Positions 12,419 through 60,370 of a DNA stretch of 64,000 nucleotides are shown piece by piece (within the stretch, counting starts at the first letter, position 1; every line of letters starts with the position of its first letter). Source of the DNA: Erysipelotrichaceae bacterium (lineage in GTDB: Bacteria; Bacillota_I; Bacilli_A; RFN20; CAG-826). Below the pieces are notes generated by a model. That model had not been told where the DNA came from. It ran no database searches and saw only the letters and a list, made by a program, of their open reading frames with translations. The stretch covers positions 14,998 to 78,997 of the forward strand of contig SVBE01000001.1 of assembly GCA_015059065.1 (NCBI GenBank). The letters run 5' to 3'. Made by a program: the position numbers and the translations under genes.

Positions 12419-12436
12419 TAATAGGAGGGTAGATTA

Positions 12437-12982
12437 ATGAACGTTTGGCATGATGTCGCAAAAGAAAGAGTTACACCAGATTCTTTCCTTGCTTTTATTG
12501 AAATTTCAAAAGGTAGTAAGAATAAATATGAATTAGATAAAGCTACTGGCAAATTAATTCTTGACCGTGTTTTGTTTACTTCCACTCACTATCCACATAA
12601 TTACGGATTTATCCCATTAACTTATGCAGATGACCATGACCCACTCGATGTTCTTGTGATCTGTTCTGAACCAATTCTTCCAATGGCTTTTGTCCAGTGC
12701 AAACCATTAGGAGTGATGAGAATGAAAGATAGCGGTATGAACGATGAAAAGATTATCGCCGTACCAATGCATGACCCATTCTATTCTTCTTATGAAGAGA
12801 TCGATGAACTTCCTCAACATATTAGAGATGAAATCATTCACTTCTTCTCCGTTTATAAAACATTAGAAGGAAAATCGACTTTCATTCAAACTTTTGAAGG
12901 CAAGGATGCAGCGAAGAAAATCATCGCCCAATGTCTTGTTAATTACGAAAGAGATATCCTTCCAACTTTAGCTAAAAAATAA
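12437..12982 (+). CDS. ppa: inorganic pyrophosphatase, family I
   Basis: 181 aa. EISKGSKNKYELD, YPHNYGFIP, DDHDPLDVLV, DEKIIAV. Confidence 0.93.
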   Translation: MNVWHDVAKERVTPDSFLAFIEISKGSKNKYELDKATGKLILDRVLFTSTHYPHNYGFIPLTYADDHDPLDVLVICSEPILPMAFVQCKPLGVMRMKDSGMNDEKIIAVPMHDPFYSSYEEIDELPQHIRDEIIHFFSVYKTLEGKSTFIQTFEGKDAAKKIIAQCLVNYERDILPTLAKK

Positions 12983-23635: not shown

Positions 23636-24291
23636 TGCCTATTACTCAGCTTAGCGTTTTAATCATCGCAGTTTTTCTCTTTGTATGTTTCCTTCTTGCT
23701 TCGATATTTAATTACAAAGCAAGGTTTAAAAAGAGTTATCATTTTCGCAGTCACTTTCCTTATGAATTAAATTATCATGGGAAATTTAAAGACAATATTT
23801 ATGGCAACTTGATTTACATTCTATATTTTATTGCGATAGTGGTTTTCTTCGTTTTCTTTAAAGATGTATCGTTTAATGGATATTTGATATTTGCTTTAGT
23901 CGCAGGTGGATTAACGCTTATATCTTTAACAGCTTTAATTTATATACCGATTGACCAATTGAGGCTGCATATGATCGATGTCGCATTTTCTTTTGTTTTC
24001 TCGATCGGTTTTTCTTTCGCGATTGTTCTTTCGAGTTTTAATAAATTTAAAGAAACGAGCAGTATTCCTTCCTTGGTCTCTCTCATCATTTCGATTGTCG
24101 TGACTTTAATCTTTGTCATCTTGATTCTCAATCCTCGCTTATCGAGGTGGGCGGAGATGGATGTTGAGAAAAAAGAGGATGGAACCCTGGTGAATGTGAG
24201 ACCGAAATGGTTCCCTCTCGCCTATAGTGAATGGGCGATGATGTTCCTCTATTTATTGTCGCTGACTTCCTTCTTAGTGGGAACGATATAA
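23635..24291 (+). CDS. polytopic membrane protein, unknown function
   Basis: 218 aa with about 6 hydrophobic segments. TAATG overlap with rpe. Confidence 0.55.
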   Translation: MPITQLSVLIIAVFLFVCFLLASIFNYKARFKKSYHFRSHFPYELNYHGKFKDNIYGNLIYILYFIAIVVFFVFFKDVSFNGYLIFALVAGGLTLISLTALIYIPIDQLRLHMIDVAFSFVFSIGFSFAIVLSSFNKFKETSSIPSLVSLIISIVVTLIFVILILNPRLSRWAEMDVEKKEDGTLVNVRPKWFPLAYSEWAMMFLYLLSLTSFLVGTI

Positions 24292-37949: not shown

Positions 37950-39569
37950 ATGGAAAGTAAATTCAAAAAGCCCGCAATCGTGTTTTTAGTTTTAAATACG
38001 ATTTTTCTTCTTGCGTGGGTGGCAGTCCTTGTTGTTTTTGGTTTAACATCAGGCCTTTATGCTAACTTTGTGCAAGATTTCTTAATGGGGGCTCATGTAA
38101 ACCCAATACTCAATGTGTTTACTAAACACAATTTTGCAAACTGGAAGATTTATGTTCTTATTGCCATCGCTGCAATTGGTGTGATCATGCTCATTGTTGG
38201 TATCGTCTTATCAATTACTAGAAAGCGCAAGAGATACATTTTCTATATCCTTTCTTTCTTATTATCTATTGCTGCTGCAATCGATTTCTTTGCTAACGCA
38301 GGCATTTATTACAGAGCTATTTTTAATCAAACTTTTGCCGGCAAACATTTAGCAGGTCTCGGTATCTTCTACATGGTGGCGATTGTTGCTTCTGCAGCCA
38401 TTGCTTATGGCTCGCACTTCTTAGTTTATTTCTTAGGCTTAGCCCACGCTAAAGCGTTAAGAAAAGCTGCTGAAGAAGAAGCTGCTCCAGTCGAAGAACA
38501 ACCAGCCCAAATTGAAGAACAACCAGAAGAGAATAACGAAGCACCTCTTGAAGATGAAGGTGAAGACTTCGCCTTAGCGGCTGTTAATAATGAAGCTCAA
38601 GCTGTCGAAGAAGTTAAGGAAGAAGAACAACCAGAAGAACAACCATTAGCTGACTTCGCTGTTGAACCAGAAGAACTTCCAGCTCAACCAGAAGAAGTTG
38701 TTGTTGAAGAAGTTCCACAAGAAACAGATCCTGAAAAGACACCTGTCACAAGACAAGATTTAGCTTCTATCTTGAAAGATGTCGTTAGAGATATCGTCAG
38801 AGACGAAATCGCTCGTGCTAACGCTGATAAAGAAGAAGAAAAGAAAGAAGAAAGACCACAATTCAATGGCAATGGTGGATTCCCATCAGTCACTGGTGCG
38901 ACATTCGGCGGACCATTAGTGGTTCAATATTTTAACGGTGGTATTAATGGACCAGCTGAACCTGCTGTTGCTCCAGCACCTGCACCAGCCCCAGCCCCAG
39001 CCCCAAAAGAAGAACCAAAAGAAGAGCCAAAACCAGCTGAAGAACCTCAACCAAAAGAAGAGCCAAAACCAGCTGAAGAACCAGCACCTCAAGCTGTGGA
39101 ACCTGTTTCAGGACCAGTTGTGGAAGAAAAACCAAAGAATCAAATCATTAGAATTCCATTCACTGAAAGACTTCTCGGTTCAGAACAAGATGTCAAGGAC
39201 ATCTATAATGAATTAAAGAATGAACTTCTTTCCTGGGGTCTCCATTCTAGAGTGAGCAATAGCGGTGATGCCTTCCGTCTCCATACAAAGACATACTGTA
39301 AAGTAACTGTTGCTGGTAAGAGCATCAAATTATATTTAGCCCTTGATCCAGCTGATTATGCAGATTCTACTCTTCCAATTCAAGATGCGTCTGAAAAAGG
39401 CTTATATGTCGATATTCCACTTGTCTTCAAAGTCAAGAGCGGCTTATCCATTAGAAGAGCTAAACAGCTCATCAAAGATGCTTGTGAAAAGGATGGCTTA
39501 ACTCAAGAAGAAGTTGGCACTGTCAACTGGGTTAAAGAATTACAAGCTGAACAAAAAGCCAAAAAATAA
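37950..39569 (+). CDS. modular membrane protein: N-terminal multi-TM domain, acidic Pro/Glu-rich repetitive linker, C-terminal globular domain
   Basis: 539 aa. About 5 TM segments in residues 1-170, then EEQP/PEE and PAPAPAPAP/KEEPKPAEEP repeats, then a ~150-aa non-repetitive C-terminal domain. Confidence 0.7.
   Translation: MESKFKKPAIVFLVLNTIFLLAWVAVLVVFGLTSGLYANFVQDFLMGAHVNPILNVFTKHNFANWKIYVLIAIAAIGVIMLIVGIVLSITRKRKRYIFYILSFLLSIAAAIDFFANAGIYYRAIFNQTFAGKHLAGLGIFYMVAIVASAAIAYGSHFLVYFLGLAHAKALRKAAEEEAAPVEEQPAQIEEQPEENNEAPLEDEGEDFALAAVNNEAQAVEEVKEEEQPEEQPLADFAVEPEELPAQPEEVVVEEVPQETDPEKTPVTRQDLASILKDVVRDIVRDEIARANADKEEEKKEERPQFNGNGGFPSVTGATFGGPLVVQYFNGGINGPAEPAVAPAPAPAPAPAPKEEPKEEPKPAEEPQPKEEPKPAEEPAPQAVEPVSGPVVEEKPKNQIIRIPFTERLLGSEQDVKDIYNELKNELLSWGLHSRVSNSGDAFRLHTKTYCKVTVAGKSIKLYLALDPADYADSTLPIQDASEKGLYVDIPLVFKVKSGLSIRRAKQLIKDACEKDGLTQEEVGTVNWVKELQAEQKAKK
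39015..39082 (+). repeat. in-frame tandem repeat: 32-nt perfect copy with a 36-nt period
   Basis: CCAAAAGAAGAGCCAAAACCAGCTGAAGAACC occurs at 39015-39046 and again at 39051-39082 (PKEEPKPAEEP x2). It is preceded by a (CCAGCC)n PAPAPAPAP tract at ~38977-39004. Confidence 0.9.
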
Positions 39570-43944: not shown

Positions 43945-43973
43945 AGCCTATCTATTTAGATAGGCTTTTTTTT
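43945..43973 (+). terminator. intrinsic terminator of eno
   Basis: AGCCTATCT-ATTT-AGATAGGCT followed by TTTTTTT. Confidence 0.85.
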
Positions 43974-44036: not shown

Positions 44037-44345
44037 ATGAACTCACTTAAAAGCATGGTAAAAATGGAAGATGAAGTCGGCGTCATCATGTCAATTTATG
44101 CGAAAAACATCTTGTCTGTTATCGATGAAAACAACAATTCCTCAATCCCAAAAATTAATCTATTTTACATCCATCGAGTACAAGAGGCATTTAACGCACT
44201 AAATGAAGAAGAACGTGAATTAATCAATAATGATTTTTTGGACGCCGATTCCCCACATTGGTGGGAACCATTTTATACGAACGAGCAATACCTGAAATTA
44301 AGGTATTCGTCTGTGAGTTCATTTTTGATGCATTTTTATGATTAA
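44037..44345 (+). CDS. small cytoplasmic protein, first gene of the pilus-like operon (possible sigma region-4/ArpU-like regulator)
   Basis: ~102 aa from ATG 44037. No TM segment. The C-terminal segment LNEEERELINNDFL...YLKLRYSSVSSFL resembles small phage-type transcription activators, but the similarity is weak and from memory only. Confidence 0.45.
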   Translation: MNSLKSMVKMEDEVGVIMSIYAKNILSVIDENNNSSIPKINLFYIHRVQEAFNALNEEERELINNDFLDADSPHWWEPFYTNEQYLKLRYSSVSSFLMHFYD

Positions 44346-45369
44346 TCTATTCCTCCATATCAAAAAAGCATTGCCTGTTCTTCTACTAATTCTATTTAGT
44401 TGCTTTTTTGCTTTCGGTGATAATTCTCCTATAAATCACCTTAAGCGTAGAAGTGCATCGTCCCCCATTCTTTTCACTAGTTCGACACTTTATGGTCCAT
44501 ATAAAGGAGGAGAAGAAATTACATTTAAATGGTCGTATAGAAATGTTTCGGGAACTAATTATAGCTCTGTCAATGATTATTTCATTGTTAGTTGTCCCTC
44601 TTATTCCTCTTCCCCTTTATTGAGCAAAAGGGTTAGTAAACATTCTTTAGCTATAGGTGCTAAACAGAATCTATCTTATTCATATAAGATTCCACCCCAA
44701 AGATTTAACACTGAATCAGGCCTTGTTATTAAAGTTGGTGTTCAGTATGGAGGGAGCTATTTATCTATAATTGAAAAAACTATAAAACCAATCAGTAGTA
44801 AAACTATTAATCCGCTTGATTATAGGTCTTCTCCATATGTTATTAAAGATAGATCATTTTATCTTAAAGATGTTGAGGTGAATGAGAGCTTTTTATTTGA
44901 CGAATATCGCGATTATGTGGAATGCGATCAGTATAATCGTCTATTGTTATCTAATCTTACTTTTAGATACAACTACCCATTAAAACTTCTTTATAAAAAC
45001 GCGAGGGTAAAATTCCTTGACCCAGAAAACATTTTTTCAAGCCTATCTTTAGATGGCGATGGTTATCGAAGCATCAATATTGTTTTAGATGATCAAGATG
45101 GAATAGTTAAAATTCTTATCCCTTCCATTTATTATGATCCACTCAGTTTAGTCCCTAACGATAAAGGGAAGGGAAATAAAACAAAATATCTATATGTTCC
45201 TAAAGGAAAAAGCAAAAAGATAGAGAAATATGAATTCATCATTGAGGCTACTGGGTTAGGGATTAACAAAACTAGCTTTTCACATTGTTTAGAATTATCA
45301 ATTTCACCTTTTTTCCTCGGTGATTGTATCGATTCAGACTACTGCATAGTTGGAGGGGTGAAAAAATGA
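44338..45369 (+). CDS. secreted protein / putative lipoprotein of the pilus-like operon
   Basis: 343 aa. The N-terminus KKALPVLLLILFSCFFA has a signal peptide with a lipobox-like LFSC. Ser/Tyr-rich with no recognised domain. 8-nt overlap with the upstream gene. Confidence 0.55.
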   Translation: MINLFLHIKKALPVLLLILFSCFFAFGDNSPINHLKRRSASSPILFTSSTLYGPYKGGEEITFKWSYRNVSGTNYSSVNDYFIVSCPSYSSSPLLSKRVSKHSLAIGAKQNLSYSYKIPPQRFNTESGLVIKVGVQYGGSYLSIIEKTIKPISSKTINPLDYRSSPYVIKDRSFYLKDVEVNESFLFDEYRDYVECDQYNRLLLSNLTFRYNYPLKLLYKNARVKFLDPENIFSSLSLDGDGYRSINIVLDDQDGIVKILIPSIYYDPLSLVPNDKGKGNKTKYLYVPKGKSKKIEKYEFIIEATGLGINKTSFSHCLELSISPFFLGDCIDSDYCIVGGVKK

Positions 45370-45749
45370 TCATTTTATTCATATCTTTGATGTTTTTATT
45401 AATGGGTTATTCTTTGTTTTCGTTTTCTTTTGCTGCACATGGCATTAATCGTTTAATTATCAACGCGCCGAGGACGATTTTTGAATATGGTGTAGTTGTT
45501 AATGATAGTGGGAACCCATATTACGAACAAGATAATATCAAGAAACGCTACAAAGCATATCTTGATGACAATATTTATCAATATGTTAATAGCTATGATT
45601 TATCATTTCGTTTTTATTACCCTGTAACAGGAGGGCTATGCGAGGAAAAATGCGAAGGAGTGGAAGTTAATATAACTTCGATTATTACCTTTTCTTTTGA
45701 GTATTCGCGAACGATGTTTTATGAAATAAGCGAGGTGCAAAATGGATAA
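45366..45749 (+). CDS. small N-terminally anchored protein (TadE/pseudopilin-like position)
   Basis: 127 aa from ATG 45366 behind SD GGAGGGG. One N-terminal TM (MIILFISLMFLLMGYSLFSFSFAA). ATGA overlap with the upstream gene. Confidence 0.5.
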   Translation: MIILFISLMFLLMGYSLFSFSFAAHGINRLIINAPRTIFEYGVVVNDSGNPYYEQDNIKKRYKAYLDDNIYQYVNSYDLSFRFYYPVTGGLCEEKCEGVEVNITSIITFSFEYSRTMFYEISEVQNG

Positions 45750-46806
45750 GAAGCAAGGTTTAGATTTCTTATATTCTACGAAATTATCTCCATATTTTAA
45801 AAAGGACAATATTACCGATATTTCGTATAATGGTATTGATATTTTTTATGTCGATAATAATGCAGGAAGAATAAAAAGCGATATCGCCTTTAGCCAAGAT
45901 GAAGCGCGCGATTTTATTCGTCAAATAGCGAATATATGTGAAAAACAGTTTTCAATGACATCGCCTAGACTTGATGTTACGATTGACAAATTCCGTATTA
46001 ACGCAATGCATCAATCAATTGGAAGAGTTAAAGACGAACAAGCTGTGACTTTTTCAATACGTATAGCTTCTAAAAAAATACGCATCTATGATGATGAGGA
46101 TTTTTTGACCGAAGAAATAAAAGAATTATTCGATGTTTTGATGGTATCTCATCAGTCTATTGTACTAGGCGGGTTACCTGGGTCTGGAAAAACGGAACTT
46201 CAAAAATATTTATTGACGAGACTTGCTAAAGATCAAAGAGCAATTGTTGTGGACAACGTCCTAGAGCTTGAAACGATTAGAGAATATATCAATTACGATT
46301 TAACGATGTGGCAGTATAACGAGAACAATCCGAATGCATCGTTGCCTTTGCTAATTAAAGAAGCGTTAAGAAATATGCCAGATTGGCTCATTTTAGCCGA
46401 AGGAAGAGGAAAAGAAATGCTTGATATTCTTAATTCGGCGGTGACGGGGTTACCGATTATTACTACTTTGCACGCTTACGATGTTCATAGCATAGTCATT
46501 AGAATGGCAAGAATGGTAATGCAAAATCAGGAAAACAGTCGTTATGAAGATGTTTTAAATGATATAAAATATCACTTTCGTTATTTCGTTTATTTAAAAA
46601 GAGAAAAAGATTCCTCAGGTGTAATAAAAAGATATATCTCTTCAATATTGCATTTAACTCCTAAAGGTGAAGCGATTGAAATATATAATAACGATTTGCA
46701 AAAGATTAGATATGGAAAAATTGATAGAGAATCGTTGTTATTGTTAAAAATTAAAAAGAATCAGACTTCTTTCATAAGAAGTTTTATAGGAGATGTAAAT
46801 GAATAG
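45742..46806 (+). CDS. tadA: CpaF/TadA/VirB11-family secretion ATPase
   Basis: 354 aa. FRINAMHQSIG...FSIR, Walker A GGLPGSGKTELQ, VDNVLELE, ALRNMPDWLILAEGRGKE (Walker B/Asp box), ITTLHA (His box). Confidence 0.85.
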   Translation: MDKKQGLDFLYSTKLSPYFKKDNITDISYNGIDIFYVDNNAGRIKSDIAFSQDEARDFIRQIANICEKQFSMTSPRLDVTIDKFRINAMHQSIGRVKDEQAVTFSIRIASKKIRIYDDEDFLTEEIKELFDVLMVSHQSIVLGGLPGSGKTELQKYLLTRLAKDQRAIVVDNVLELETIREYINYDLTMWQYNENNPNASLPLLIKEALRNMPDWLILAEGRGKEMLDILNSAVTGLPIITTLHAYDVHSIVIRMARMVMQNQENSRYEDVLNDIKYHFRYFVYLKREKDSSGVIKRYISSILHLTPKGEAIEIYNNDLQKIRYGKIDRESLLLLKIKKNQTSFIRSFIGDVNE

Positions 46807-47506
46807 TTATCGCCTTTATTTTGTTATTATCGCTTTAATCGCTTCTGGTGTTTGCTTTTTTGCGAGTGAGAATCTTTATATCACGATTGGGGTAGGGGTC
46901 GTATTTCTTATTTATCCTCAAATAATGTTAGTAAAAAAGATTGAAAAAAGTAATTCAACATATAGCCGATATCATGAGTGTTTTCACTTTGTTAACTCAT
47001 TTATTGTGAGCATTGATATACGCGGATCATTAAACGGCGCTTTTTCCTCAATAAACCCGACAATGAGTAAATCATATCAAGCTGTTTATGAAGGCATAGA
47101 GTCAAACAAAAGTGAAGATAAAATCACTTATTTGCAGAAATATTTCCCTTTCCATTACTATGGCTTATTTATAAAAATAATAAATCTTTGGCAAGAACAA
47201 GGTGGAGATATTTTATCTATGTCGTCCCATTTATTAGAAGAGGGAAGAAAAAGTGAGGAATATTTAAGATACTGTCAAGACTCACATCTCACAAGGACGA
47301 TGGAATTTGTAGTCTTATGGGTTTTTGCCTTGGTTAATCTTGTCGTGATGCGTGTTTCCTTAAACCAGTTTTTCACACATATTGTTAACAATATAGTCTA
47401 TCAGGTTGGATTAACTGCATTCTTCCTCTTCTTTCTAATAAGCATCGATATTCTTGTGAGAAAAGTTACGAGTAAAGAAGTAAAGGGGTGGGATGAATAT
47501 GAATAA
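46799..47506 (+). CDS. TadB-like inner-membrane platform protein (T2SSF-like)
   Basis: 235 aa. N-terminal TM pair, a cytoplasmic helical domain (...LWQEQGGDILSMSSHLLEE...) and C-terminal TMs. Size, topology and position after the ATPase fit TadB. Confidence 0.6.
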   Translation: MNSYRLYFVIIALIASGVCFFASENLYITIGVGVVFLIYPQIMLVKKIEKSNSTYSRYHECFHFVNSFIVSIDIRGSLNGAFSSINPTMSKSYQAVYEGIESNKSEDKITYLQKYFPFHYYGLFIKIINLWQEQGGDILSMSSHLLEEGRKSEEYLRYCQDSHLTRTMEFVVLWVFALVNLVVMRVSLNQFFTHIVNNIVYQVGLTAFFLFFLISIDILVRKVTSKEVKGWDEYE

Positions 47507-48167
47507 ATTAAGAAGAATAATTGAAGAACAAGGTCTTTCATTTTCAAAAGAGATGTTTAAATTAGCATTGATTAACGTCTTTTTCATCGCTTTAGGAGTC
47601 CTCGTTTTTTGTTTAAAGTTAGAAAAATACTATTACATAGTGGTCGTGGTGTTTTTATTGCTTGCAAATTATTTTTTCATTAGTTCTTATTCTAGTCGTT
47701 ACCAGCAGATGATTTATCAGCACGACGATGAATTAATTGCTTTGTTTTCATATTTTAAAGTTTTTATATCGAATCATATTCCGGTCTATTCGGCATTTAC
47801 AAATTTGCTTGCTTATTCAAGTGACTGGATGAAAGAAAAGATAAATCTTTTACTTAAAGAAATTGACAATGACAAAACAGTGCAGCCTTTTATACGTTTT
47901 AGCAAAAACTTTCAAAATCTAGTTTTTGAATCTTTGTGCATTTCTTTGTACCAAATGATTGATGAGGGAGAAAGCTTAGAAAAGAGCAATGAGTTCACTT
48001 TCTTATTTAACGAGGTGAATGAATCGAATATACGTCGGAAAATGGAGAAAAAGAAAAGGTCCTTAGATATTCTGGCTTCTTTTCCTCTATTTGGAAGTGG
48101 GATCATTACTGTGACTCTTACTATTAGTATTGTTTCAAGCATTGGAGGTATGATAAATGTCTTCTAA
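47493..48167 (+). CDS. TadC-like inner-membrane platform protein (T2SSF-like)
   Basis: 224 aa with the same topology as the preceding gene. 14-nt overlap with it. Confidence 0.6.
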   Translation: MNMNKLRRIIEEQGLSFSKEMFKLALINVFFIALGVLVFCLKLEKYYYIVVVVFLLLANYFFISSYSSRYQQMIYQHDDELIALFSYFKVFISNHIPVYSAFTNLLAYSSDWMKEKINLLLKEIDNDKTVQPFIRFSKNFQNLVFESLCISLYQMIDEGESLEKSNEFTFLFNEVNESNIRRKMEKKKRSLDILASFPLFGSGIITVTLTISIVSSIGGMINVF

Positions 48168-48498
48168 AATTGGAACGATTTTATCGATGTTATTTGTAGT
48201 CATGTTTTTCCTTTTTGGGACTGATTTATTATGCCTTCAATATTGCTATTCATCGCTCGATTCTAAAGGAATAACTATTTCTTATTACATAAGCAAAAAT
48301 GGCAGAATTGATAACGATTTTATTTCTTATTTATCGAATAAATACGAAGTTGAAATAATCGCAGATCAAAAACAATCAGTTGATTATGGAGACGTTGTTA
48401 GATTCACGATTAGAGATACATTTAACCCATTGGTGATATCTAGCTCAGAGATGGTTGTATCTATCTCTAGAGAAGCGATTATTGGCTATTATGGGTAG
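48157..48498 (+). CDS. small N-terminally anchored protein (TadE-like/minor pilin candidate)
   Basis: 113 aa with a single N-terminal TM (IGTILSMLFVVMFFLFGTDLL). 11-nt overlap with the upstream gene. Confidence 0.5.
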   Translation: MSSKIGTILSMLFVVMFFLFGTDLLCLQYCYSSLDSKGITISYYISKNGRIDNDFISYLSNKYEVEIIADQKQSVDYGDVVRFTIRDTFNPLVISSSEMVVSISREAIIGYYG

Positions 48499-48512
48499 AA
48501 AGGAGGGTAAGT

Positions 48513-48698
48513 ATGTCAGAGATCAAAGGACAACTATTAGGAATAATTCTCGTTTTAATGGTTTTTGGTGCGGTGTCGGCAGCAATGGTGGTTGTATTTA
48601 ATAAACTTACAAAGAGTGTCGAAGACCAAGTAACAGAAATAACTAATTCGTCATCAAAAAAGAGTGTTTACCAAATTGACGATTATCTTTCCTATTAG
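48513..48698 (+). CDS. Flp/archaeal-type pilin-like protein
   Basis: 61 aa. MSEIKG|QLLGIILVLMVFGAVSAAMVVVF has a short charged leader, Gly, then ~22 hydrophobic residues and a short polar tail. Strong SD AAAGGAGGG. Confidence 0.5.
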   Translation: MSEIKGQLLGIILVLMVFGAVSAAMVVVFNKLTKSVEDQVTEITNSSSKKSVYQIDDYLSY

Positions 48699-48762: not shown

Positions 48763-48987
48763 ATGGATGTTGTTAATACCATTAAAGTAATTTTAGCTAA
48801 GCGTGTTGATGTAACTAAACTTAAGCCTGAGGATACTTTGCCATCACTTGGTTTAGACTCTTTAGATCTAGTTGAAGTTATGCTTGAAATTGAATATGCT
48901 CTCCATATTGAATTCACAAGTGAAGAGATTACAAATTTGACTACAATTCAAAGTGTAATTGATTTGATTAATGCTAAATTAGCATAA
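48763..48987 (+). CDS. acpP: acyl carrier protein
   Basis: 74 aa. LGLDSLDLVEVMLEIE, with the DSL serine as the phosphopantetheine attachment site. Confidence 0.85.
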   Translation: MDVVNTIKVILAKRVDVTKLKPEDTLPSLGLDSLDLVEVMLEIEYALHIEFTSEEITNLTTIQSVIDLINAKLA

Positions 48988-49191: not shown

Positions 49192-49202
49192 ACCCAAAAA
49201 AT

Positions 49203-49222
49203 ACAGCTTCGGCTGTTTTTTT
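49203..49222. terminator. bidirectional intrinsic terminator after the tRNA pair
   Basis: AAAAAAT-ACAGC-TTCG-GCTGT-TTTTTT. A UUCG tetraloop flanked by A and T runs. Confidence 0.75.
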
Positions 49223-49225
49223 GTT

Positions 49226-49322
49226 GTGACTGTATGCGAACCATGAATGGTTAAGCTCTTCTCAACACCAGTTGGCACCTACACACCCACGACCAATCAG
49301 TTAACGCCTTAGGCGCACGACC
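49226..49322 (-). pseudogene. degenerate inverted copy of the tRNA-Asn/tRNA-Glu pair (pseudo-tRNAs)
   Basis: 49226-49269 aligns to the reverse complement of tRNA-Glu (GTGAC.TGTATG....CGAACC.ATGAATG[anticodon arm missing]GTTAAGC.CTTCTC.AACA). 49273-49322 aligns to the reverse complement of tRNA-Asn (TGGCaCCTAC[T arm missing]ACCCACGACCaATCaGTTAAC...). Confidence 0.65.
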
Positions 49323-49370
49323 AAAACAATGACAAAGTCATTGCTTTAGTTTTTGATACCAAAATCTTGT

Positions 49371-50123
49371 TTATGGCAAGTAATGAGTGCTGATATAATT
49401 CATGTTCTCGAGAATATTAGGCCAATAGAATTCAACTCTTCTTCGATAAGATTCGTTTTTAATTTTGGTCTTGTAGTACCTAGCATGAGGCCTAAATAAA
49501 ATTGGCCCAATATGAAGTGCTTCGATAAAGTCCCAGTCTTTGCTTTCAAGATATTTTAAAACCTGAGTGCGAGAAATGATTACACCGATATTGACATCGC
49601 CGTGATATAGATAATCTGCAGAAATGTAATCTTCTTGTGAACCCTTAAATAAAAAACGATCAACCATATCAACAACAAATCTGCGATTAGCATTTAGTTC
49701 TCTGTTGCCAAGAATGAATGGTTTCTCGAGTTTTTTTCTTAGAGCAGGATAGCTCATTCTCTCTTTTCCGGAACCATCATATGTTCCGTCTCCAAATTGG
49801 AAAAAAAGAATTGTTTTGAGCAAATAATCGTGGAAACCATAATCTCTAAGCAGATTAATAAAATTTTTAATGTATTCTTGATGAACAATGTTATTGATAC
49901 CGCTTTTCATCGAAATATAATGAGTTTCATCATTTATGGTAATGGAAAAATCAGGCTTCATTGTTCCTTCAATTTGTTTGGCATAAACGATATCGCCATC
50001 GTGACAATTAGGAAAAACAAAGCGGACAATATTCTGCAAATTAAGCGATAGTAGTGACACTGGTTTTTCATTCAGTTCAGCGACCATTTGTGACTCTTTT
50101 AATTCGCCGTGGTTATACTTCAT
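49371..50123 (-). CDS. PD-(D/E)XK restriction-endonuclease-like protein (MspI/HpaII-like core?), no adjacent methyltransferase
   Basis: 250 aa with SD GGAGGGAG. The candidate nuclease core GTMKPDFSITINDETHYISMKSG fits a PD...(S/N)xK pattern like MspI KTD...NIK. The N-terminal NHGELKE is reminiscent of the HpaII-family GEWSE. Recognition is from memory only. Confidence 0.4.
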   Translation of the reverse strand: MKYNHGELKESQMVAELNEKPVSLLSLNLQNIVRFVFPNCHDGDIVYAKQIEGTMKPDFSITINDETHYISMKSGINNIVHQEYIKNFINLLRDYGFHDYLLKTILFFQFGDGTYDGSGKERMSYPALRKKLEKPFILGNRELNANRRFVVDMVDRFLFKGSQEDYISADYLYHGDVNIGVIISRTQVLKYLESKDWDFIEALHIGPILFRPHARYYKTKIKNESYRRRVEFYWPNILENMNYISTHYLP

Positions 50124-50156
50124 AAACTCCCTCCTTTCTGGAGGCTAAACAAAAAC

Positions 50157-50206
50157 CCTCCTATATATAAAGAGGGCAAAAACGCGAAATTTCGACGCAG
50201 AAATTT
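50157..50206 (-). repeat. right copy of the 50-bp inverted repeat, upstream of the nuclease-like gene
   Basis: On the minus strand it reads AAATTTCTGCGTCGAAATTTCGCGTTTTTGCCCTCTTTATATATAGGAGG. It contains the 10-bp palindrome CGAAATTTCG and lies 33 nt upstream of the ATG at 50123. Confidence 0.85.
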
Positions 50207-50249: not shown

Positions 50250-50912
50250 TTATCGATAAGAGAAAAGAGAGTCTAAGTAGTCCGCAAGCTCATCAGTGCC
50301 TTCATCTTTAATCGAACTAACTTTGAAAACTTTAGCATTTGGATTTCTTTTATGGATATTTGCTTCACATTTTTTAAAGTCAAAGTTGAAGACGGGTAGA
50401 GTATCAATTTTTGTTATAACCGCTATATCACTAACTTGGAACATTAAAGGGTATTTAAGAGGTTTATCGTCACCTTCAGGCACGGACAAAAGCATCATAT
50501 TGATGTTACTGCCTGTATCAAATTCAGCGGGGCATACAAGGTTGCCAATGTTTTCGAGTATTAAAATATCTAATCCTTCAACATTAAACTCATTTATTGC
50601 ATCATTAACCATCTGTGCGGTTAGATGACATGCTCCTGAGGTGTGAATTTGAATTGACTTAACGCCAGTAGCAGAGGATATTCTTTCCGCATCAACTTCT
50701 CCATCAATGTCCGCTTCCATCACGCCAATTTTGTACTTTTTCTTTAATTTATTGATGATATTTGTTAATAGAGTGGTTTTGCCACTTCCTGGTGAAGCCA
50801 TTACGTTAAGGAAGAAAATGCCTTTTTCTTTAAGCATTTTTCTCACCTCTTTTGCCTTTTCATTATTCTCAACAAGAATGTCTTCTTTAACTTTTACCAC
50901 CTGATATTCCAT
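50250..50912 (-). CDS. hypB: hydrogenase/urease-type nickel-insertion GTPase HypB (copy 1)
   Basis: 220 aa from ATG 50912 (SD GAGAGGT). [15 protein letters not shown] (CH metal motif), ENIGNLVCPAEFD, TKID. No His-rich or CxxCGC N-terminus. Confidence 0.88.
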   Translation of the reverse strand: MEYQVVKVKEDILVENNEKAKEVRKMLKEKGIFFLNVMASPGSGKTTLLTNIINKLKKKYKIGVMEADIDGEVDAERISSATGVKSIQIHTSGACHLTAQMVNDAINEFNVEGLDILILENIGNLVCPAEFDTGSNINMMLLSVPEGDDKPLKYPLMFQVSDIAVITKIDTLPVFNFDFKKCEANIHKRNPNAKVFKVSSIKDEGTDELADYLDSLFSYR

Positions 50913-51003
50913 ATAATAATTACCTCTCATACATAATATCATAAAATAATTAGTAGTTTTATTATTAAACATAGTTTACAATAAATACGTTAAGAAATTA
51001 GCA

Positions 51004-51678
51004 ATGAGTGAAATCAAGACTATCACAGTAAATCGTTCAGCTTATGCGGACAATGACGAGGAAGCAAATTTATTGAGAGAGTATCTCAAGAGCAAAGGAA
51101 CTTTTCTTGTGAATCTCATGTCTTCGCCTGGCGCGGGTAAGACTACAACGTTAATAGCTTTGATAAATGTCTTGAAAAAGCAATTTCGCATTGGCGTGAT
51201 GGAAGCGGATATCGATAGTGATGTCGACGCCATTTCTATCGCAAAGAATACAGGAGTAAAATCGATTCAGATTCATACTTCAGGAATGTGCCACCTTGAT
51301 GCAGGAATGACGAAAAGTGGACTTGACAGTATTGATATCAGCGATCTTGACCTTGTGTTCTTAGAAAACGTAGGTAATCTCGTTTGCCCAGCGGAATTCG
51401 ACACTGGAGCGAGTATGGACATGATGATCCTTTCCATTCCAGAAGGCGATGATAAGCCGTTAAAATATCCACTCGTATTTGAGAAATGTGATCTCGTTCT
51501 CATCAATAAGATTGACACTATATCATATTTCAACTTTGATATCGACAAGTGTAAACAAGCGATACTTCGAAGAAATCCTCACGCAACGATTATTCCTATT
51601 AGTGGTTTAACTGGGGAGAACATTGATAAAGTTGCAGAATATTTTAGTAATATCATTAAGAACTGGAAGGAGAAATAA
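51004..51678 (+). CDS. hypB: nickel-insertion GTPase HypB (copy 2)
   Basis: 224 aa. SPGAGKTTTL, GMCHLDA, ENVGNLVCPAEFD, NKID. Divergent from copy 1, separated by a 91-nt spacer. Confidence 0.9.
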   Translation: MSEIKTITVNRSAYADNDEEANLLREYLKSKGTFLVNLMSSPGAGKTTTLIALINVLKKQFRIGVMEADIDSDVDAISIAKNTGVKSIQIHTSGMCHLDAGMTKSGLDSIDISDLDLVFLENVGNLVCPAEFDTGASMDMMILSIPEGDDKPLKYPLVFEKCDLVLINKIDTISYFNFDIDKCKQAILRRNPHATIIPISGLTGENIDKVAEYFSNIIKNWKEK

Positions 51679-51681: not shown

Positions 51682-54576
51682 ATGCCAGAACAATATTACA
51701 AACAAAAACCGCCATTCCAAGGTGAACAAGGCTACTCTTACGAAAAGAAATTGATCAAACTCTGCCGTAAGATTACTGACGTTGTTCCACACAAGTTATT
51801 TGGAATGACAACTAATGACCCAGAATATTTCGGTCTTAGAGAAGTTTTAACTGAGGAAATGATTGATGTTTTACTCAAATTAAAACAAAGAAAACATTAC
51901 ACATTTGAAGATTTGGTGAAGAAATTCCCCGAGATTGAACCAGCTAAGCTTCAAAAATTATTCGACGATATGTCCGTTATCGGTATTATCGAATATGACT
52001 ATGGTGATAATTATGCATGGGATCACCCATTAGAAGATAAACCAAAGATTAAGAGATATATGCTCTCTTATTTCGTTCCTGGCAGTGCAGAGTTGATGAA
52101 CTCTTCCGTTGACCGTATTGCTAAAAATCCAGCCGTTGCATCTTTCTTTGAAAGAATGACATTCGTTCCGCTTGCCGGTGTGACTGAAATGCTTCCTCCT
52201 GGTGGAGGTGGTGTTGGTATGCACGTCATCCCAGTGGAAAAAGCCATTGAAAATAACCAAGAAGCCATCGATGTTGAAAAGATTTCTCACTGGATGGATA
52301 AATACGAAGGTCATATTTCCGCAGGTATTTGTTCATGTCGTGCCTCCAGAGCGATGATCGGCGATGGATGTATCGATGATGTCGATGATTGGTGTGTTCA
52401 ATTCGGTGATATGGCCGATTATACTGTTGAAACTAATCGTGCGCATTATATTACAAAGGAAAGAGCGCTTGAGATTTTCCAAGCTGCAGAAAAGAATGGT
52501 TTCGTTCACCAAATCACTAACATCGACGGTGAAAACAAAATCTTCGATATCTGTAACTGTGACGTCAAGATTTGTAATGCTTTAAGAACAGCATTATTAT
52601 TCAACACTCCATACCTTGAAAGAAGTGCTTATTCTGCAAAGGTTGATAAGACCAAATGTGTGGCATGTGGTCAATGTGTCTCCAATTGTCCAGCTGGTGC
52701 TGTTAAATTAGGTCAAAAATTATGTAAGGGTGACGGCAAAGAGCAAGAATATCCTCTCTCCGTCTTACCAGATAAAATTAAATGGGGCAAATATGCATGG
52801 GATGAAAATTACCGTGATACTGCCCGTAAGAGTGATACTTGGGCTACTGGTACAGCTCCATGTAAGGTTGCTTGTCCAGCTCACGTCCCAGTCCAAGGAT
52901 ATTTACAAAAAGCCAAAGAAGGCAAATATGTCGAAGCTTTAGCGTTAATTAAGACTCAAAACCCATTCCCAGCAGTTTGTGGTCGTGTCTGTAACAAAAA
53001 ATGTGAAGAAGCTTGTACTAGAGGAAAAGTTGACGCACCAGTTTCTATTGATGCTGTCAAGAAATTCGTCGCAGACTTCGAGAGAAGCCAAAAAGATCGT
53101 TATATCCCAGAAAAGATTATGGCGACTTTACACGAAGAAGGCTTCCCAGAAAAGATCGCTATCATCGGTGCTGGTCCAGCTGGTTTATCTGCGGCCTATT
53201 ACTTATGTGAAATGGGCTTCAAACCAACAGTCTTTGAAAAGAATGAAAAACCTGGCGGTATGATGATGTACGGCATTCCATCATACAAACTTGAAAAAGA
53301 CGTCATTGAAGATGAAATTGATATCATCAGAAAGATGGGGGCTGAAATCAAGTGTGGTGTGGAAGTCGGTAAAGATGTAACAATCGCTCAACTTAAAGAA
53401 CAAGGCTATAAAGCCTTCTATATCGCAATCGGTTGCCAAGGTGGCAGAAGACCAAATGTTCCAAATGATACTGCAAAAGGCACTGATATTGCCGTCAGCT
53501 ACTTAAAGGGAGCTCTTGGCAAACAAGTTAAATTCACTGGTGATGTCGTTGTCGTCGGTGGTGGTAACGTTGCTATTGACTGTGTGAGAACAGCTCATAG
53601 ATTAGGAAGCAAGAATGTGCAAATGTTCGCTCTTGAATCAAGAGAAACAATGCCAGCTTCTAAAGAAGAAATTTCTGAAACACTCGATGAAGGAATTCTC
53701 ATCAACAATGGTTGGGGTCCAAAAGAACTTAAAGTCAACGCCAAAGGTGAAGTCACTGAAATCGTCTTCAAAAAATGTACTGCCACATTGGACAAAGATG
53801 GCAAATTCAATCCACAATATGATGAATCCGAAATCATGACTGTGAAAGCCGATAAAGTAATCTTCGCAATTGGCCAAGCTATTGAATGGGGTAACCTCTT
53901 AGAAGGAAGCAAAGTCACATTCTGGCATGGTAATTATCCACTCGCTGATAAGTTAACTTATCAAACTGCTGACGATGATATCTTCGTCGGTGGTGATGTC
54001 TTCACTGGTCCAAAATTCGTCATCAACGCGATTGCTGCTGGTCACGAAGTTGCCGATGCTCTCGCTAGACATGTTAGACCAAATGCCCATCCAACTATCG
54101 CCTTTAATAGACGTGGATTCACTCCTCTTAATAAAGATGATATTACTCTTCCAGGTTATGATGAAGCTGGTAGACAAGAAGCTGGTATGGACGAAAAGAT
54201 TGACCACAAGAACTCCTTCAAAGATGCCCATAAGACTCTTACTGAAGAACAAGTTCACATCGAGACAAGCAGATGTCTCTCCTGTGGTGCCGCCCATGTT
54301 GACTTCAACAAATGTATCGGTTGTGGTGTTTGTACAACTAAATGTAAGTTCGACGCCATCCACTTGGTGAGAGATCACCCAGAATGTTCCAATATGAAAC
54401 GTGCCGAAGATAAAGTTGGCACTCTCCTCAAATACGCTCTCAAACGCGAAGTTAAAATCTTGCTCCATTCCGGTAGCAAAGAAGCTCGCATGATGAGAAA
54501 GAAACGCAAGGAGTGGAACAAATACTACAAAACTGCCAAGAAAGAAAAACCTTGGACAGGTAACGCAGTAGAATAA
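51682..54576 (+). CDS. large multi-cluster Fe-S flavoprotein: unknown Cys-rich N-domain + ferredoxin + GltD/DPD-like FAD/NAD(P) module + C-terminal 2x[4Fe-4S] ferredoxin
   Basis: 964 aa. CSCRAS...C...C, then CVACGQCVSNCP, then CKVACPAH...CGRVCNKKCEEACTRG (GltD N-terminal clusters), IAIIGAGPAGLSAAYYL, VVVVGGGNVAIDC, and CLSCG...CIGCGVCTTKC. Confidence 0.85.
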   Translation: MPEQYYKQKPPFQGEQGYSYEKKLIKLCRKITDVVPHKLFGMTTNDPEYFGLREVLTEEMIDVLLKLKQRKHYTFEDLVKKFPEIEPAKLQKLFDDMSVIGIIEYDYGDNYAWDHPLEDKPKIKRYMLSYFVPGSAELMNSSVDRIAKNPAVASFFERMTFVPLAGVTEMLPPGGGGVGMHVIPVEKAIENNQEAIDVEKISHWMDKYEGHISAGICSCRASRAMIGDGCIDDVDDWCVQFGDMADYTVETNRAHYITKERALEIFQAAEKNGFVHQITNIDGENKIFDICNCDVKICNALRTALLFNTPYLERSAYSAKVDKTKCVACGQCVSNCPAGAVKLGQKLCKGDGKEQEYPLSVLPDKIKWGKYAWDENYRDTARKSDTWATGTAPCKVACPAHVPVQGYLQKAKEGKYVEALALIKTQNPFPAVCGRVCNKKCEEACTRGKVDAPVSIDAVKKFVADFERSQKDRYIPEKIMATLHEEGFPEKIAIIGAGPAGLSAAYYLCEMGFKPTVFEKNEKPGGMMMYGIPSYKLEKDVIEDEIDIIRKMGAEIKCGVEVGKDVTIAQLKEQGYKAFYIAIGCQGGRRPNVPNDTAKGTDIAVSYLKGALGKQVKFTGDVVVVGGGNVAIDCVRTAHRLGSKNVQMFALESRETMPASKEEISETLDEGILINNGWGPKELKVNAKGEVTEIVFKKCTATLDKDGKFNPQYDESEIMTVKADKVIFAIGQAIEWGNLLEGSKVTFWHGNYPLADKLTYQTADDDIFVGGDVFTGPKFVINAIAAGHEVADALARHVRPNAHPTIAFNRRGFTPLNKDDITLPGYDEAGRQEAGMDEKIDHKNSFKDAHKTLTEEQVHIETSRCLSCGAAHVDFNKCIGCGVCTTKCKFDAIHLVRDHPECSNMKRAEDKVGTLLKYALKREVKILLHSGSKEARMMRKKRKEWNKYYKTAKKEKPWTGNAVE

Positions 54577-54920
54577 TGCACGAACTTGGAATCGTTGTCC
54601 ACGTTGTCAAACAAGTCGAGGAACTCGTCAAAAAGAATAATGCGACAAAAGCATTAGAAGTGACTCTTGAAGTCGGCGAGGTCAGTGGGGTTGTTAAAGA
54701 ATATTTCGTCGATGCCTTTAATTGGGCAGCAAAAAGATCGGAATATATGAAGGAATGTAAACTCAATTATATTACCATTCAAGCAATCACATATTGTCAA
54801 GACTGTAAACATACATATCAGACGGTGAAATATGGTAAAGAATGTCCATACTGCCATTCTCCGAATACATATCTCACTACTGGTAAAGATGTGATGATCA
54901 AGGACATCAAAGTAATATAA
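54576..54920 (+). CDS. hypA: nickel metallochaperone HypA
   Basis: 114 aa. N-terminal MHE nickel site and a zinc site CQDC...CPYC. The ATG shares one nucleotide with the upstream TAA (TAATG). Confidence 0.9.
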   Translation: MHELGIVVHVVKQVEELVKKNNATKALEVTLEVGEVSGVVKEYFVDAFNWAAKRSEYMKECKLNYITIQAITYCQDCKHTYQTVKYGKECPYCHSPNTYLTTGKDVMIKDIKVI

Positions 54921-55017: not shown

Positions 55018-55656
55018 ATGAAAAATTTGTTAGATAAAACCTATGATTTATTTGCTTCAAGACTGAATAAGTGGTTTATTCTAGCTGGCATTGCTTCCCT
55101 TGGATTAAACGCTTTGTTTACATTTATTGGTGGAGTGAGCTCACTTGGCAGCGAAGCATTTTATTATATTGTTCTTCTTGCTTTCCAAGCTCTTATTATC
55201 GTTGGCCTTATCGTTGGCCATTATCGAAACAAAGAACCTCTTTTATTCTTCGCATTTATCGCATTTCTTGTTTTATTAGCGCAGGGTAGTGTGGTAGGTG
55301 CTACATTCGGTGCAAGCGCTTTAGGCCAAGCAGACACTACCTATGTTTTAAGATGGGTATTTTCTTTGATTTATGCGATCGCCCTTGGCTGTTTCTTAGT
55401 CTGTATCCTTCTCGTTTACTTATTTAAAGTGAAAATGGTGGTTATCATTTTAAAAGCGAGCTTTTTCCTCTCTTTAATCTTTGGAGTTGTGGCTTGGATA
55501 TTTGGCATCGTCTATGCGGCCAATGGATATGGTTGGACTAACGCTATTATTCCTTTATTAGAAGTTGGCTCATTATTAATGATTCCTGGATTACTTGAAG
55601 AACTTCTTCCTGGCGAACTCGATGGCGAAAGAGAAGAAAAAGAATCTGAAGAATAG
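55018..55656 (+). CDS. polytopic membrane protein with an acidic C-terminal tail
   Basis: ~212 aa with about 6 TM segments and a tail GELDGEREEKESEE. No family recognised. Confidence 0.55.
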   Translation: MKNLLDKTYDLFASRLNKWFILAGIASLGLNALFTFIGGVSSLGSEAFYYIVLLAFQALIIVGLIVGHYRNKEPLLFFAFIAFLVLLAQGSVVGATFGASALGQADTTYVLRWVFSLIYAIALGCFLVCILLVYLFKVKMVVIILKASFFLSLIFGVVAWIFGIVYAANGYGWTNAIIPLLEVGSLLMIPGLLEELLPGELDGEREEKESEE

Positions 55657-59935: not shown

Positions 59936-60370
59936 ATGAATATGGAAAGAATCAATTGCTGTTGTTCCTATCAATTTAAGGATCAAATTATCGATTATTA
60001 CACTTTATTTGGCTATAACTTTGAGGGGATTAAAAATCTTCATTTTTCGCGTATAAAGTTATCTTTTAGCCGCGAAGATGTTGATAAAAAAGTGAGAGAA
60101 GTTGAAGGGAAATATCGACTTTATCCATTTTTAACTTTTTATCCTGTCGCTATTGCCTGTTTATTAATCCTCGTTCTTGCCACCCTATTTCTCGTTTTTA
60201 CTTTTAAAGGCGGGGGAGATAAACTTATATATTTTTTATCTTTTATGCTTCCAGCGTTTATTTTGCTCCCTCTTATCGCCGTTTATACATACGTTCGTTA
60301 TCATTTTGATAGTAAAAATATACTAATATTATCTTCTTTGAAGGAAATCAAAAAACAATTGGAGGAGTAA
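59936..60370 (+). CDS. small membrane protein, unknown function
   Basis: 144 aa with two central TM segments. Its TAA shares one nucleotide with the cls ATG. Confidence 0.5.
   Translation: MNMERINCCCSYQFKDQIIDYYTLFGYNFEGIKNLHFSRIKLSFSREDVDKKVREVEGKYRLYPFLTFYPVAIACLLILVLATLFLVFTFKGGGDKLIYFLSFMLPAFILLPLIAVYTYVRYHFDSKNILILSSLKEIKKQLEE

Follow-up and report, generated by a model that had tools for sequence, protein, structure and literature searches.

Gene 37 of the conjugative plasmid pLS20 is annotated as a 'putative VirB11', and its neighbors, genes 36 and 38 to 41, as 'Unknown' (PMC8557374). These six genes are equivalent to CDS23 to CDS18 on pAW63, pXO2, and pBT9727, and the description of pAW63 names a 'VirB11' (CDS22) together with conserved hypotheticals (PMC1196294). 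A 2025 review of type IV secretion systems (T4SSs) states that Gram-positive conjugation systems 'universally lack VirB11 homologs' (PMC12857230), and we found no literature linking pLS20 to platform proteins (TadB, GspF) or to type IV pilins. Here, we analyze an eight-gene operon (g1 to g8, positions 44037 to 48698) in a stretch of 64,000 nucleotides from an Erysipelotrichaceae bacterium (assembly GCA_015059065.1, contig SVBE01000001.1; this whole stretch is hereafter the window). Four of its genes, g4 to g7, are homologous to the plasmid block. We consider it likely that the operon encodes a minimal assembly machine of the type IV filament (TFF) type, carried on the chromosome and inherited vertically. 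No description of the operon was found in the searchable literature.

An eight-gene operon with a counterpart on conjugative plasmids

The operon comprises eight open reading frames (ORFs), all on the + strand:

g1, 44037 to 44345, + strand: soluble 102-aa member of the MG284/MPN403 family that opens the operon (NCBIfam NF045770)
g2, 44338 to 45369, + strand: 343-aa protein, exported or surface-located, whose N-terminus carries a signal or anchor (ortholog alignment)
g3, 45366 to 45749, + strand: 127-aa N-anchored protein without a leader, in the position of pLS20 gene 36 (profile matches, position)
g4, 45742 to 46806, + strand: 354-aa secretion ATPase of the hexameric type (T2SSE/PilT-VirB11 superfamily), the putative motor (Pfam T2SSE, neighbor-joining tree)
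g5, 46799 to 47506, + strand: 235-aa polytopic protein, predicted platform subunit of the TadB/TadC/GspF type, homolog of pLS20 gene 38 (hhalign, Foldseek)
g6, 47493 to 48167, + strand: 224-aa protein, second predicted platform subunit of the GspF/TadC type, homolog of pLS20 gene 39 (Foldseek, hhalign)
g7, 48157 to 48498, + strand: 113-aa N-anchored candidate minor pilin or pseudopilin, homolog of pLS20 gene 40 (hhalign, profile)
g8, 48513 to 48698, + strand: 61-aa pilin-like protein, proposed major filament subunit (MSEIKG leader, hydrophobic helix, context)

Successive genes from g1 to g7 overlap by 8, 4, 8, 8, 14, and 11 nt. The g7/g8 junction is a gap of 14 nt that contains the strong Shine-Dalgarno sequence AAAGGAGGG, and a second such sequence (AGGGGG) precedes the ATG of g1. 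The eight co-directional ORFs, their overlaps, and the Shine-Dalgarno site before g8 are exactly as stated by the first-pass annotation, an earlier reading of the same DNA made from the sequence alone. Gene callers start g6 two codons later, giving 222 aa instead of 224. The first-pass annotation had also proposed a minimal type IV filament-like machine, and this stands, given a secretion ATPase, two single-domain platform proteins, and a short pilin-like protein. Its 'Tad/archaeal-type' label does not hold. The ATPase is sister to ATPases of Bacillota plasmids, and g8 lacks the Flp motif G/XXXXEY.

In tblastn searches against plasmids, g4 matched best on Bacillus (545 records), Listeria, and Enterococcus, at 26 to 33% identity and E values down to 3e-39, with proteobacterial VirB11 and CpaF far behind (about 1e-13 or weaker). 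A g4 profile scored 166 to 233 bits on the plasmid ATPases, which are 373 to 471 aa long and keep the first histidine of the His box in five of six cases (Ser in pLS20 gene 37). The block to which they belong has six positions, each with a counterpart in the window:

Position 1: N-anchored protein of about 125 aa (pLS20 gene 36), counterpart g3
Position 2: ATPase (pLS20 gene 37), counterpart g4
Position 3: membrane protein of about 270 aa (pLS20 gene 38), counterpart g5
Position 4: membrane protein of about 250 aa (pLS20 gene 39), counterpart g6
Position 5: N-anchored protein of about 120 aa (pLS20 gene 40), counterpart g7
Position 6: one or more single-helix proteins of 47 to 80 aa (pLS20 gene 41), counterpart g8

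The block is collinear on pLS20, pXO2, and plasmids of Listeria (pLM80-type), E. faecium, and B. halotolerans; on the B. badius plasmid pPM400, parts of the module are scattered through the conjugation cluster. Profiles of g3 to g7 match the equivalent genes on five to six plasmids. Profile-profile comparison with hhalign joined g5 to the gene 38 family (96%, E 4e-9), g6 to the gene 39 family (96.5%, E 9e-10), and g7 to the gene 40 family (96%, E 4e-9). The g7 profile found the collinear gene on five plasmids (E 1.6e-7 to 2.2e-5), and these plasmid homologs carry weak matches to DUF4320. Thus, g4 to g7 are homologous to the plasmid block. For g3, the profile found the gene just 5' of the ATPase in B. 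halotolerans (5e-6), pLS20 (2e-3), and E. faecium (3e-3), with a weak hhalign result (5%); its homology to pLS20 gene 36 is tentative and rests on position. The equivalence of g8 and gene 41 is one of position and architecture.

Wherever wider context was retrieved, the plasmid block adjoins T4SS genes, namely VirD4 and, on pLS20, also the membrane protein pLS20_p028. In the B. badius cluster the set is complete, comprising VirD4, VirB4, a VirB6-like protein, and NlpC/P60. A large adhesin gene lies 5' of the block on pLS20 (the thioester protein Tie) and on the B. halotolerans and E. faecium plasmids (SpaA-like in the latter). The pLS20-type block is embedded in T4SS conjugation operons that also encode a cell-wall hydrolase, whereas the window operon lies on the chromosome without any T4SS genes. 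In addition, it has g1 and g2, for which ortholog profiles found no plasmid counterparts.

Two further observations concern the plasmids themselves. On the pLS20-type plasmid NZ_CP032868, the 47-aa gene 41 is duplicated in tandem and encodes identical proteins (12140 to 12283 and 12310 to 12453 of stretch L089), which would fit a highly expressed structural subunit. The conjugation clusters of B. badius pPM400, the E. faecium plasmid, and pXO2 also contain a separate 'T4SS pilin' gene of the TrbC/VirB2 family (41 bits on Pfam T4SS_pilin for the pPM400 copy). With the block and this gene in the same clusters, two different pilin-like systems coexist in Gram-positive tra regions.

A secretion ATPase and two predicted platform proteins

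The motor candidate, g4, scored 59.7 bits on Pfam T2SSE (PF00437; cutoff 24.9), which places it in the superfamily. It stays far below the NCBIfam cutoffs of every narrower family scored: 104.7 bits against 249.95 for VirB11 (TIGR02788), 94.7 against 373 for the TadA type (TIGR03819), 62.5 against 550 for FlaI, and 51.5 against 300 for ComGA. Among solved structures, it is roughly equidistant from VirB11 (HP0525, 2e-15, 60 bits), archaeal GspE (7e-13, 52 bits), and CpaF (2e-9, 40 bits). The ATPase motifs GSGKT, ALRNMPDWLILAEGRG, TGL, and TTLHA are all present, as had been reported from the sequence. Invariant among 80 orthologs are K150 and T151 of Walker A, E220 of Walker B, R222, and H244, the second histidine of the His box. 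The replacement of TGH by TGL had been read as a departure from the wider ATPase family; it is real in this genome but is a trait of a subclade only. Position 237, the first histidine of TGH, is His in 57 of 80 orthologs and otherwise Leu, Met, Ala, Ile, Val, or Ser.

A small, bootstrapped neighbor-joining tree recovered the window ATPase family as monophyletic (100%) and sister to the Bacillota plasmid ATPases (100%), which by themselves form a group with 98% support. The two together joined VirB11 in 16 of 100 bootstraps and CpaF in none of 100. The deep nodes of this tree are weakly supported, including the attachment of the two groups to proteobacterial VirB11 or CpaF.

Platform proteins of the T2SSF family are recognizable in both g5 and g6 through several routes. 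Against canonical TadB and TadC proteins (Novosphingobium, Xanthobacter, and pXO1), hhalign gave g5 a probability of 94.9% (E 4e-8, 207 columns). In AlphaFold models of g5 and g6 (predicted local distance difference test scores 79 and 77), a cytoplasmic helical bundle lies between transmembrane helices at the N- and C-terminal ends. The best meaningful Foldseek matches of g5 were the N-domain of PilC (2whn; probability 0.87, TM-score 0.64 to 0.67) and OutF (5nbg; 0.75, TM-score 0.69). The top matches of g6, to cytoplasmic domains, share a single fold: OutF (5nbg, probability 1.00), SpoIIIAB (6bs9, 0.99), EpsF (2vmb, 0.99), and PilC (2whn, 0.87), with TM-scores of 0.61 to 0.67 when normalized to the target. 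Pfam T2SSF was matched by 8 of 61 g6 orthologs (best E 0.0016) and by none of the g5 orthologs, every one of which was scanned.

B. badius proteins bridge the remaining distance. The g5 profile scored 44.9 bits on a plasmid protein that itself reaches 25.7 bits on Pfam T2SSF (cutoff 25.2), and the g6 profile scored 45.2 bits on another at 24.6 bits, just under that cutoff; PGAP names both 'type II secretion system F family'. Ortholog-profile searches of PDB sequences with g1, g2, g3, g5, g6, and g7 found nothing. The earlier proposal of two TadB/TadC-like platform proteins is thus borne out by profile-profile comparison, predicted fold, and a bridging homolog, and we accept g5 and g6 as predicted single-domain platform proteins of the GspF/TadB/TadC type.

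A short pilin-like protein and two N-anchored partners

Across 61 orthologs of 47 to 75 aa, g8 keeps one layout: MSEIKG, then Q, S, or T, LLG(I/V)(I/L)L, about 20 uncharged hydrophobic residues, and a short variable tail. M1, E3, K5, G6, and F18 are invariant, and S2, I4, Q7, L8, L9, G10, and L13 nearly so. The leader is built like a class III (prepilin) signal peptide, in which Lys occupies −2 and Gly −1, and the window protein reads KG↓QLLGIILV around the candidate processing site (arrow). No other ORF in the window has a signal of this class. The description of the 61-aa product as pilin-like is therefore retained on the invariant MSEIKG and the hydrophobic helix. Orthologs have no Glu-Tyr at +5/+6 in any case and no match to Flp_Fap; Pfam gave weak, mixed matches to archaeal Pilin_N (3 of 61) and TrbC (4 of 61). 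The g8 profile also reached, weakly (E about 6e-3), a 55-aa protein of the B. badius conjugation cluster (MGEHKGAITLSLVV...) and a 67-aa ORF of the pXO1 Tad locus that is pilin-like and unannotated. The B. badius conjugation cluster holds a closer look-alike of g8 than gene 41 (MGEHKGAITLSLVVIVLFG...).

In g7, the N-terminus reads MS(Y/S)K(I/L)G, and the protein also has a hydrophobic helix and a domain rich in beta structure. Pfam TadF was matched weakly by 4 of 59 orthologs (best E 2.4e-4), and comparison with proteobacterial TadE by hhalign gave no significance. The g3 protein opens with a transmembrane or hydrophobic helix, and its orthologs share an N-R motif, which reads GINR in the window; it may be an assembly factor or minor subunit. 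Pfam scans of all g1, g2, and g3 orthologs returned only noise. Four products had earlier been described as belonging to no nameable family. This holds for g2 and g3, which have no family matches, but not for the 102-aa g1, which passes the MG284/MPN403 model, or the 113-aa g7, a homolog of pLS20 gene 40.

Conservation in uncultured gut and rumen Bacilli

Scanning a single genome for each species returned 269 loci, from which we analyzed the best 80 together with five fetched by exact protein (85 in all). The best 80 all come from metagenome-assembled genomes (MAGs) labeled 'Bacilli', 'Erysipelotrichaceae', or 'Bacillales', uncultured and sampled from rumen, gut, and digesters, with ATPase identities of 43 to 74%. 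The protein collection holds more than 1000 relatives of g4, and the few with a name are labeled 'Erysipelotrichaceae bacterium' and stem from MAGs. Each of the eight genes has detected orthologs in 70 to 85 of the 85 loci, and the dominant order is gmk (−), g1 to g8 (+), acp (+). Median ortholog identities are 33% (g1), 27% (g2), 30% (g3), 49% (g4), 36% (g5), 41% (g6), 44% (g7), and 54% (g8), and even the closest orthologs are more than 20% divergent in protein. Since eight genes and their housekeeping neighbors are kept together at such divergence, the operon is a selected, vertically inherited trait. It is neither a chance assembly nor a recent insertion, and an entire lineage of uncultured Bacilli from gut and rumen carries it as a fixed part of the chromosome.

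The host had been called probably wall-less, which is not shown. TGA is the stop codon of 3 of 29 long ORFs in the window and of g2, and no in-frame TGA occurs. TGA is thus read as stop, which indicates the standard rather than the Mycoplasma code. This code is used despite the low GC content and a g1 family named after Mycoplasma proteins. Related uncultured orders are predicted to include peptidoglycan-deficient families and to be sortase-free (PMC10868615). A literature search on pili in RF39, RFN20, and Tenericutes found nothing relevant.

Comparison with described filament and secretion systems

The operon resembles Tad/Flp systems in having one ATPase and, directly after it, two paralogous single-domain platform proteins of about 230 aa, as with TadB and TadC, and in its very short pilin and small N-anchored, pseudopilin-like proteins. 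Unlike reference Tad loci, however, the operon and its flanks lack TadZ, CpaB/RcpC, and TadV; moreover, g8 lacks G/XXXXEY, and g4 never grouped with CpaF in the bootstraps. The canonical Tad locus of Bulleidia is a different, complete tad operon (PMC12786226). Archaeal type IV pili of the Epd/Aap type offer another likeness, with a short K-G leader followed by Q, an uncharged hydrophobic helix without Glu5, and an envelope-simple machine of monoderms, and a few g8 orthologs match Pilin_N weakly. They differ in that g4 falls far short of the FlaI model, no FlaK/PibD-type peptidase was found, and no archaeal relatives were recovered.

Gram-negative VirB11 shares the size of g4 (330 to 350 aa) and gives its best NCBIfam and PDB sequence scores. 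Yet g4 remains far under the VirB11 cutoff and joins VirB11 in few bootstraps, and VirB11 acts under VirB4, without GspF-type platform or class III pilin partners. The flanks of the window operon also differ from a VirB11 T4SS, consisting of gmk, enolase, CNNM transporters, the acyl carrier protein gene, transfer RNAs (tRNAs), and HypB-like genes, with no VirB4, VirD4, or relaxase among the precomputed Pfam families. From ComG it differs in the low ComGA score, in a platform split into two proteins rather than the two-domain ComGB, and in a g8 without KG↓FTLxE and Glu5. The locus is not a strict Tad system, a VirB11 T4SS remnant, or a ComG system.

The absence of parts is a consistent feature of the locus. 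Searches for an A24 prepilin peptidase were negative in the 64-kb window, across the 85 chromosomal loci, and in 15- to 19-kb stretches around the module on seven plasmids. They combined motifs, Pfam scans of the polytopic window ORFs, and hidden Markov model (HMM) and phmmer searches with two TadV proteins and E. coli GspO. Among the precomputed Pfam families of neighboring genes, there was no TadZ, CpaB, secretin, VirB4, VirD4, or relaxase, and no hydrolase or integrase was seen in the operon flanks. The claim that peptidase, TadZ, and secretin are missing from the locus is hence confirmed. Two kinds of candidate were considered and rejected. A 144-aa ORF with a GGGD motif (59936 to 60370), examined as a TadV-like peptidase, spans the membrane twice, is soluble in its N-terminal half, and matches nothing in Pfam. 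The polytopic orphans at 23635 to 24291 and 55018 to 55656 drew no support as divergent peptidases from Pfam, HMM, or phmmer.

Peptidases encoded outside the locus have precedent in MSH pili, whose loci are all without a prepilin peptidase (PMC6668835). These TFF loci are systematically peptidase-free and borrow the enzyme from elsewhere, but MSH is a diderm derivative of type IVa pili with a secretin and long pilins, and it is unrelated in sequence.

The distinction from Tad can also be drawn between plasmids. pXO1 carries a canonical monoderm Tad locus (stretch L091, 4959 to 10423), which differs from the pXO2/pLS20-type block. It comprises CpaB, CpaF, a platform protein, an AAA family ATPase at the position of TadZ, and two small pilin-like ORFs annotated as hypothetical. 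The two anthrax plasmids thus carry two different TFF-like systems.

Proposed mechanism and alternative explanations

We propose that the hexameric ATPase g4 would dock on a heteromeric membrane platform of g5 and g6. The motor would then pull g8 out of the membrane and polymerize it into a thin filament. Mature g8 would measure about 41 to 69 aa after probable cleavage behind the invariant Gly6, and the invariance of the leader suggests recognition by a peptidase encoded elsewhere. Priming or minor subunits would be provided by g7 and possibly g3. The best candidate for an adhesive or filament-associated surface component is g2, and g1 would be a small cytoplasmic accessory protein of the MG284/MPN403 family. 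With no T4SS partners at the locus, the machine would have to work alone. We infer leader cleavage, filament formation, and the roles of g1 to g3 from sequence and context; the T2SSF-like nature of g5 and g6, the kinship of g4 to g7 with the plasmid block, the gene content, its conservation, and the absence of a peptidase from the locus are observations. Attachment or cell-cell contact in the gut and rumen is the most likely role, with DNA uptake as the main alternative.

Several points weigh against a filament machine. The pilin call for g8 rests on motif and context, with no Glu5, no Flp motif, and weak, mixed Pfam matches; g5, g6, g7, and g8 of the window have no direct above-threshold match in Pfam or NCBIfam; and no prepilin peptidase turned up in the window, the 85 loci, or the plasmid stretches. 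The first histidine of the His box is lost in this genome (Leu at 237). By hhalign, g6 showed no significance against proteobacterial TadB/C, and g5 against g6 was marginal (9% probability). Foldseek E values were weak (2 to 3 for g5, 0.14 to 1.5 for g6), as is usual for small helical bundles. On the plasmid side, Gram-positive conjugative elements are stated to form no conjugative pili (PMC8557374), and we found no literature report of a filament for the plasmid block, so that a filament is unproven on both sides.

The make-up of the operon (an ATPase, a platform, a short pilin, and minor pilin-like proteins) also matches that of TFF systems for DNA uptake, and its chromosomal position is conserved and core-like, with relatives that sit in DNA-transfer operons. 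It could accordingly be a competence pseudopilus that takes the place of ComG in a reduced genome, drawing DNA to the membrane, where ComEC-type uptake would follow. The missing peptidase would suit this explanation, since ComG-type loci keep theirs elsewhere (comC in B. subtilis). Yet g4 reaches only 51.5 bits on the ComGA model (cutoff 300), the two single-domain platform proteins are unlike ComGB, g8 has no KG↓FTLxE, and no comEA, comEC, or dprA was seen in the Pfam-annotated flanks, and we regard a competence pseudopilus as unlikely. Somewhat less probable still is an exporter or surface-display device resembling a type II secretion system (T2SS), in which a short g8 endopilus would push g2 or other substrates across the envelope without forming a long fiber. 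Such a device would accord with an exported, fast-evolving g2 that is translationally coupled within the operon, with the adhesins just 5' of the module on plasmids (Tie on pLS20, SpaA-like on the E. faecium plasmid), and with a wall-poor envelope that would need only a short piston. However, g2 has its own Sec-type signal and so needs no dedicated exporter, neither a secretion substrate nor any T2SS-specific part is identifiable, and the idea is purely inferential.

The plasmid kinship bears on a further explanation, that an integrated conjugative element has been decaying here and the operon is its remnant. Among annotated proteins, the ATPase and g5 to g7 have their nearest relatives in tra regions of conjugative plasmids, and the GC content of the operon (0.326) is slightly under the window mean (0.367). 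Decay is contradicted by intact orthologs that recur between gmk and acpP in species-representative genomes at 20 to 50% identity, and by invariant catalytic residues. The ATPase family is monophyletic and sister to the plasmid group rather than nested within it, and the Pfam-annotated flanks showed no VirB4, VirD4, relaxase, hydrolase, or integrase. A remnant is strongly disfavored and, in our judgment, very improbable. The first-pass annotation had held that membrane proteins without T2SSF/TadBC matches, together with an ATPase grouping with conjugative VirB11/TrbB, would point to such a remnant in place of a pilus. Half of this applies: a conjugative kinship was found, but the operon is not a remnant, because the plasmid relatives share the platform and pilin-like genes, the locus is without T4SS genes, and its housekeeping synteny is conserved. 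We therefore continue to favor a free-standing filament machine.

Implications for conjugation and filament biology

The main value of this comparison lies in an unrecognized pilus-like module within Gram-positive conjugation operons, linked here to a free-standing chromosomal version. The plasmid 'VirB11' belongs to a complete module of ATPase, platform, and pilin-like protein, and the same module can stand alone. This exposes a gap in the conjugation literature, where statements that VirB11 (PMC12857230) and pili (PMC8557374) are lacking stand against the plasmid module. Tentatively, and as a possibility we rate at a little under even, pLS20, pAW63/pXO2, and Listeria-type plasmids and, separately, a whole uncultured lineage of Mollicutes-related Bacilli from gut and rumen may build an unrecognized class of type IV filament with pilins of about 45 to 60 aa, a VirB11-like ATPase, a TadB/C-like platform, and no dedicated prepilin peptidase. 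If so, the plasmid filament would be the missing 'conjugative pilus' of monoderms. The chromosomal form would be a domesticated version, free of T4SS parts, that serves adhesion or DNA uptake; its host cells, should the lineage be RFN20-like, may be without sortases and perhaps even without the wall.

Because pLS20 is a tractable model in B. subtilis, mating-pair formation in monoderms becomes directly testable. The operon is a candidate adhesion or DNA-uptake organelle for abundant, uncultured, genome-reduced Bacilli of the gut and rumen. It also adds a deep-branching lineage of ATPase and platform proteins to the debate on the kinship of TFF and T4SS ATPases.

The first two genes of the operon

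The C-terminal domain model of MG284/MPN403 (NF045770) gave g1 53.5 bits (cutoff 37.3). Orthologs of g1 occur in 70 of 85 loci, always directly 5' of g2, and share the motif ...INNEFF..WW..YS..YYR.K. An exhaustive search of 1.84 billion proteins retrieved 77 cluster representatives, all from MAGs, with no direct link to cultured Mycoplasma beyond the NCBIfam model. The literature on MG284/MPN403 yielded nothing relevant, and a regulator or chaperone would be a guess. Such domains otherwise occur in stand-alone proteins of about 100 aa, which makes a metagenomic protein of 1665 aa (P0240) with eight MG284/MPN403-like domains in tandem unusual.

The fastest-evolving gene of the operon is g2, with orthologs in 72 of 85 loci at a median identity of 27%. 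Conserved among them are YVNP.TLEMS, FYLP.NK, a C-terminal Cys pair, and a C-terminal G.C..SDYCV.GG. No relatives were found in Pfam, NCBIfam, or PDB sequences. The product had been called a putative lipoprotein, which does not hold in general, as the lipobox Cys varies among orthologs and is not kept. Because it is exported, fast-evolving, and placed where the plasmids have adhesins, g2 is a plausible adhesive component, and we consider it a candidate adhesin or filament-associated surface component.

Genomic neighborhood and other observations

Upstream of the operon are enolase and a divergent guanylate kinase gene (gmk). A terminator-like hairpin at 43945 to 43966 closes the enolase gene, and g1 lies downstream of it. 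On the other side, an acyl carrier protein gene is followed by tRNA-Asn and tRNA-Glu:

acpP, 48763 to 48987, + strand: acyl carrier protein gene, synteny marker (PP-binding domain in orthologous loci; 3' of g8 in 72 of 85)

We treat acpP as a synteny marker and not as a demonstrated component of the machine.

The spot 3' of acpP and the two tRNA genes (49200 to 50200) differs in content among relatives. The window has a 250-aa orphan ORF there (49371 to 50123, −) with no Pfam or NCBIfam match. The equivalent spot holds an 818-aa Big_2 surface protein in locus L004 (11693 to 15389) and pyruvate formate-lyase genes in locus L001 (11593 to 15109). The region beside tRNA-Asn/Glu may thus be variable or prone to insertion.

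Next comes a metallocenter-maturation cluster (50250 to 50972, −; 51004 to 51678, +; 51682 to 54576, +; 54576 to 54920, +). Its first genes encode two divergent, paralogous HypB/UreG-like GTPases (cobW family), followed by a 964-aa Fe-S flavoprotein that resembles the small chain of glutamate synthase and by a short CxxC protein similar to HypA, the Pfam families being taken from the orthologous locus L004. No obvious hydrogenase or urease accompanies this cluster in the window. Three polytopic ORFs of 218, 212, and 539 aa (23635 to 24291, 55018 to 55656, and 37950 to 39569, all +) had no match in Pfam or NCBIfam at E ≤ 0.01; in locus L001, the 539-aa ORF has an ortholog that bears PF09847 (12TM_1).

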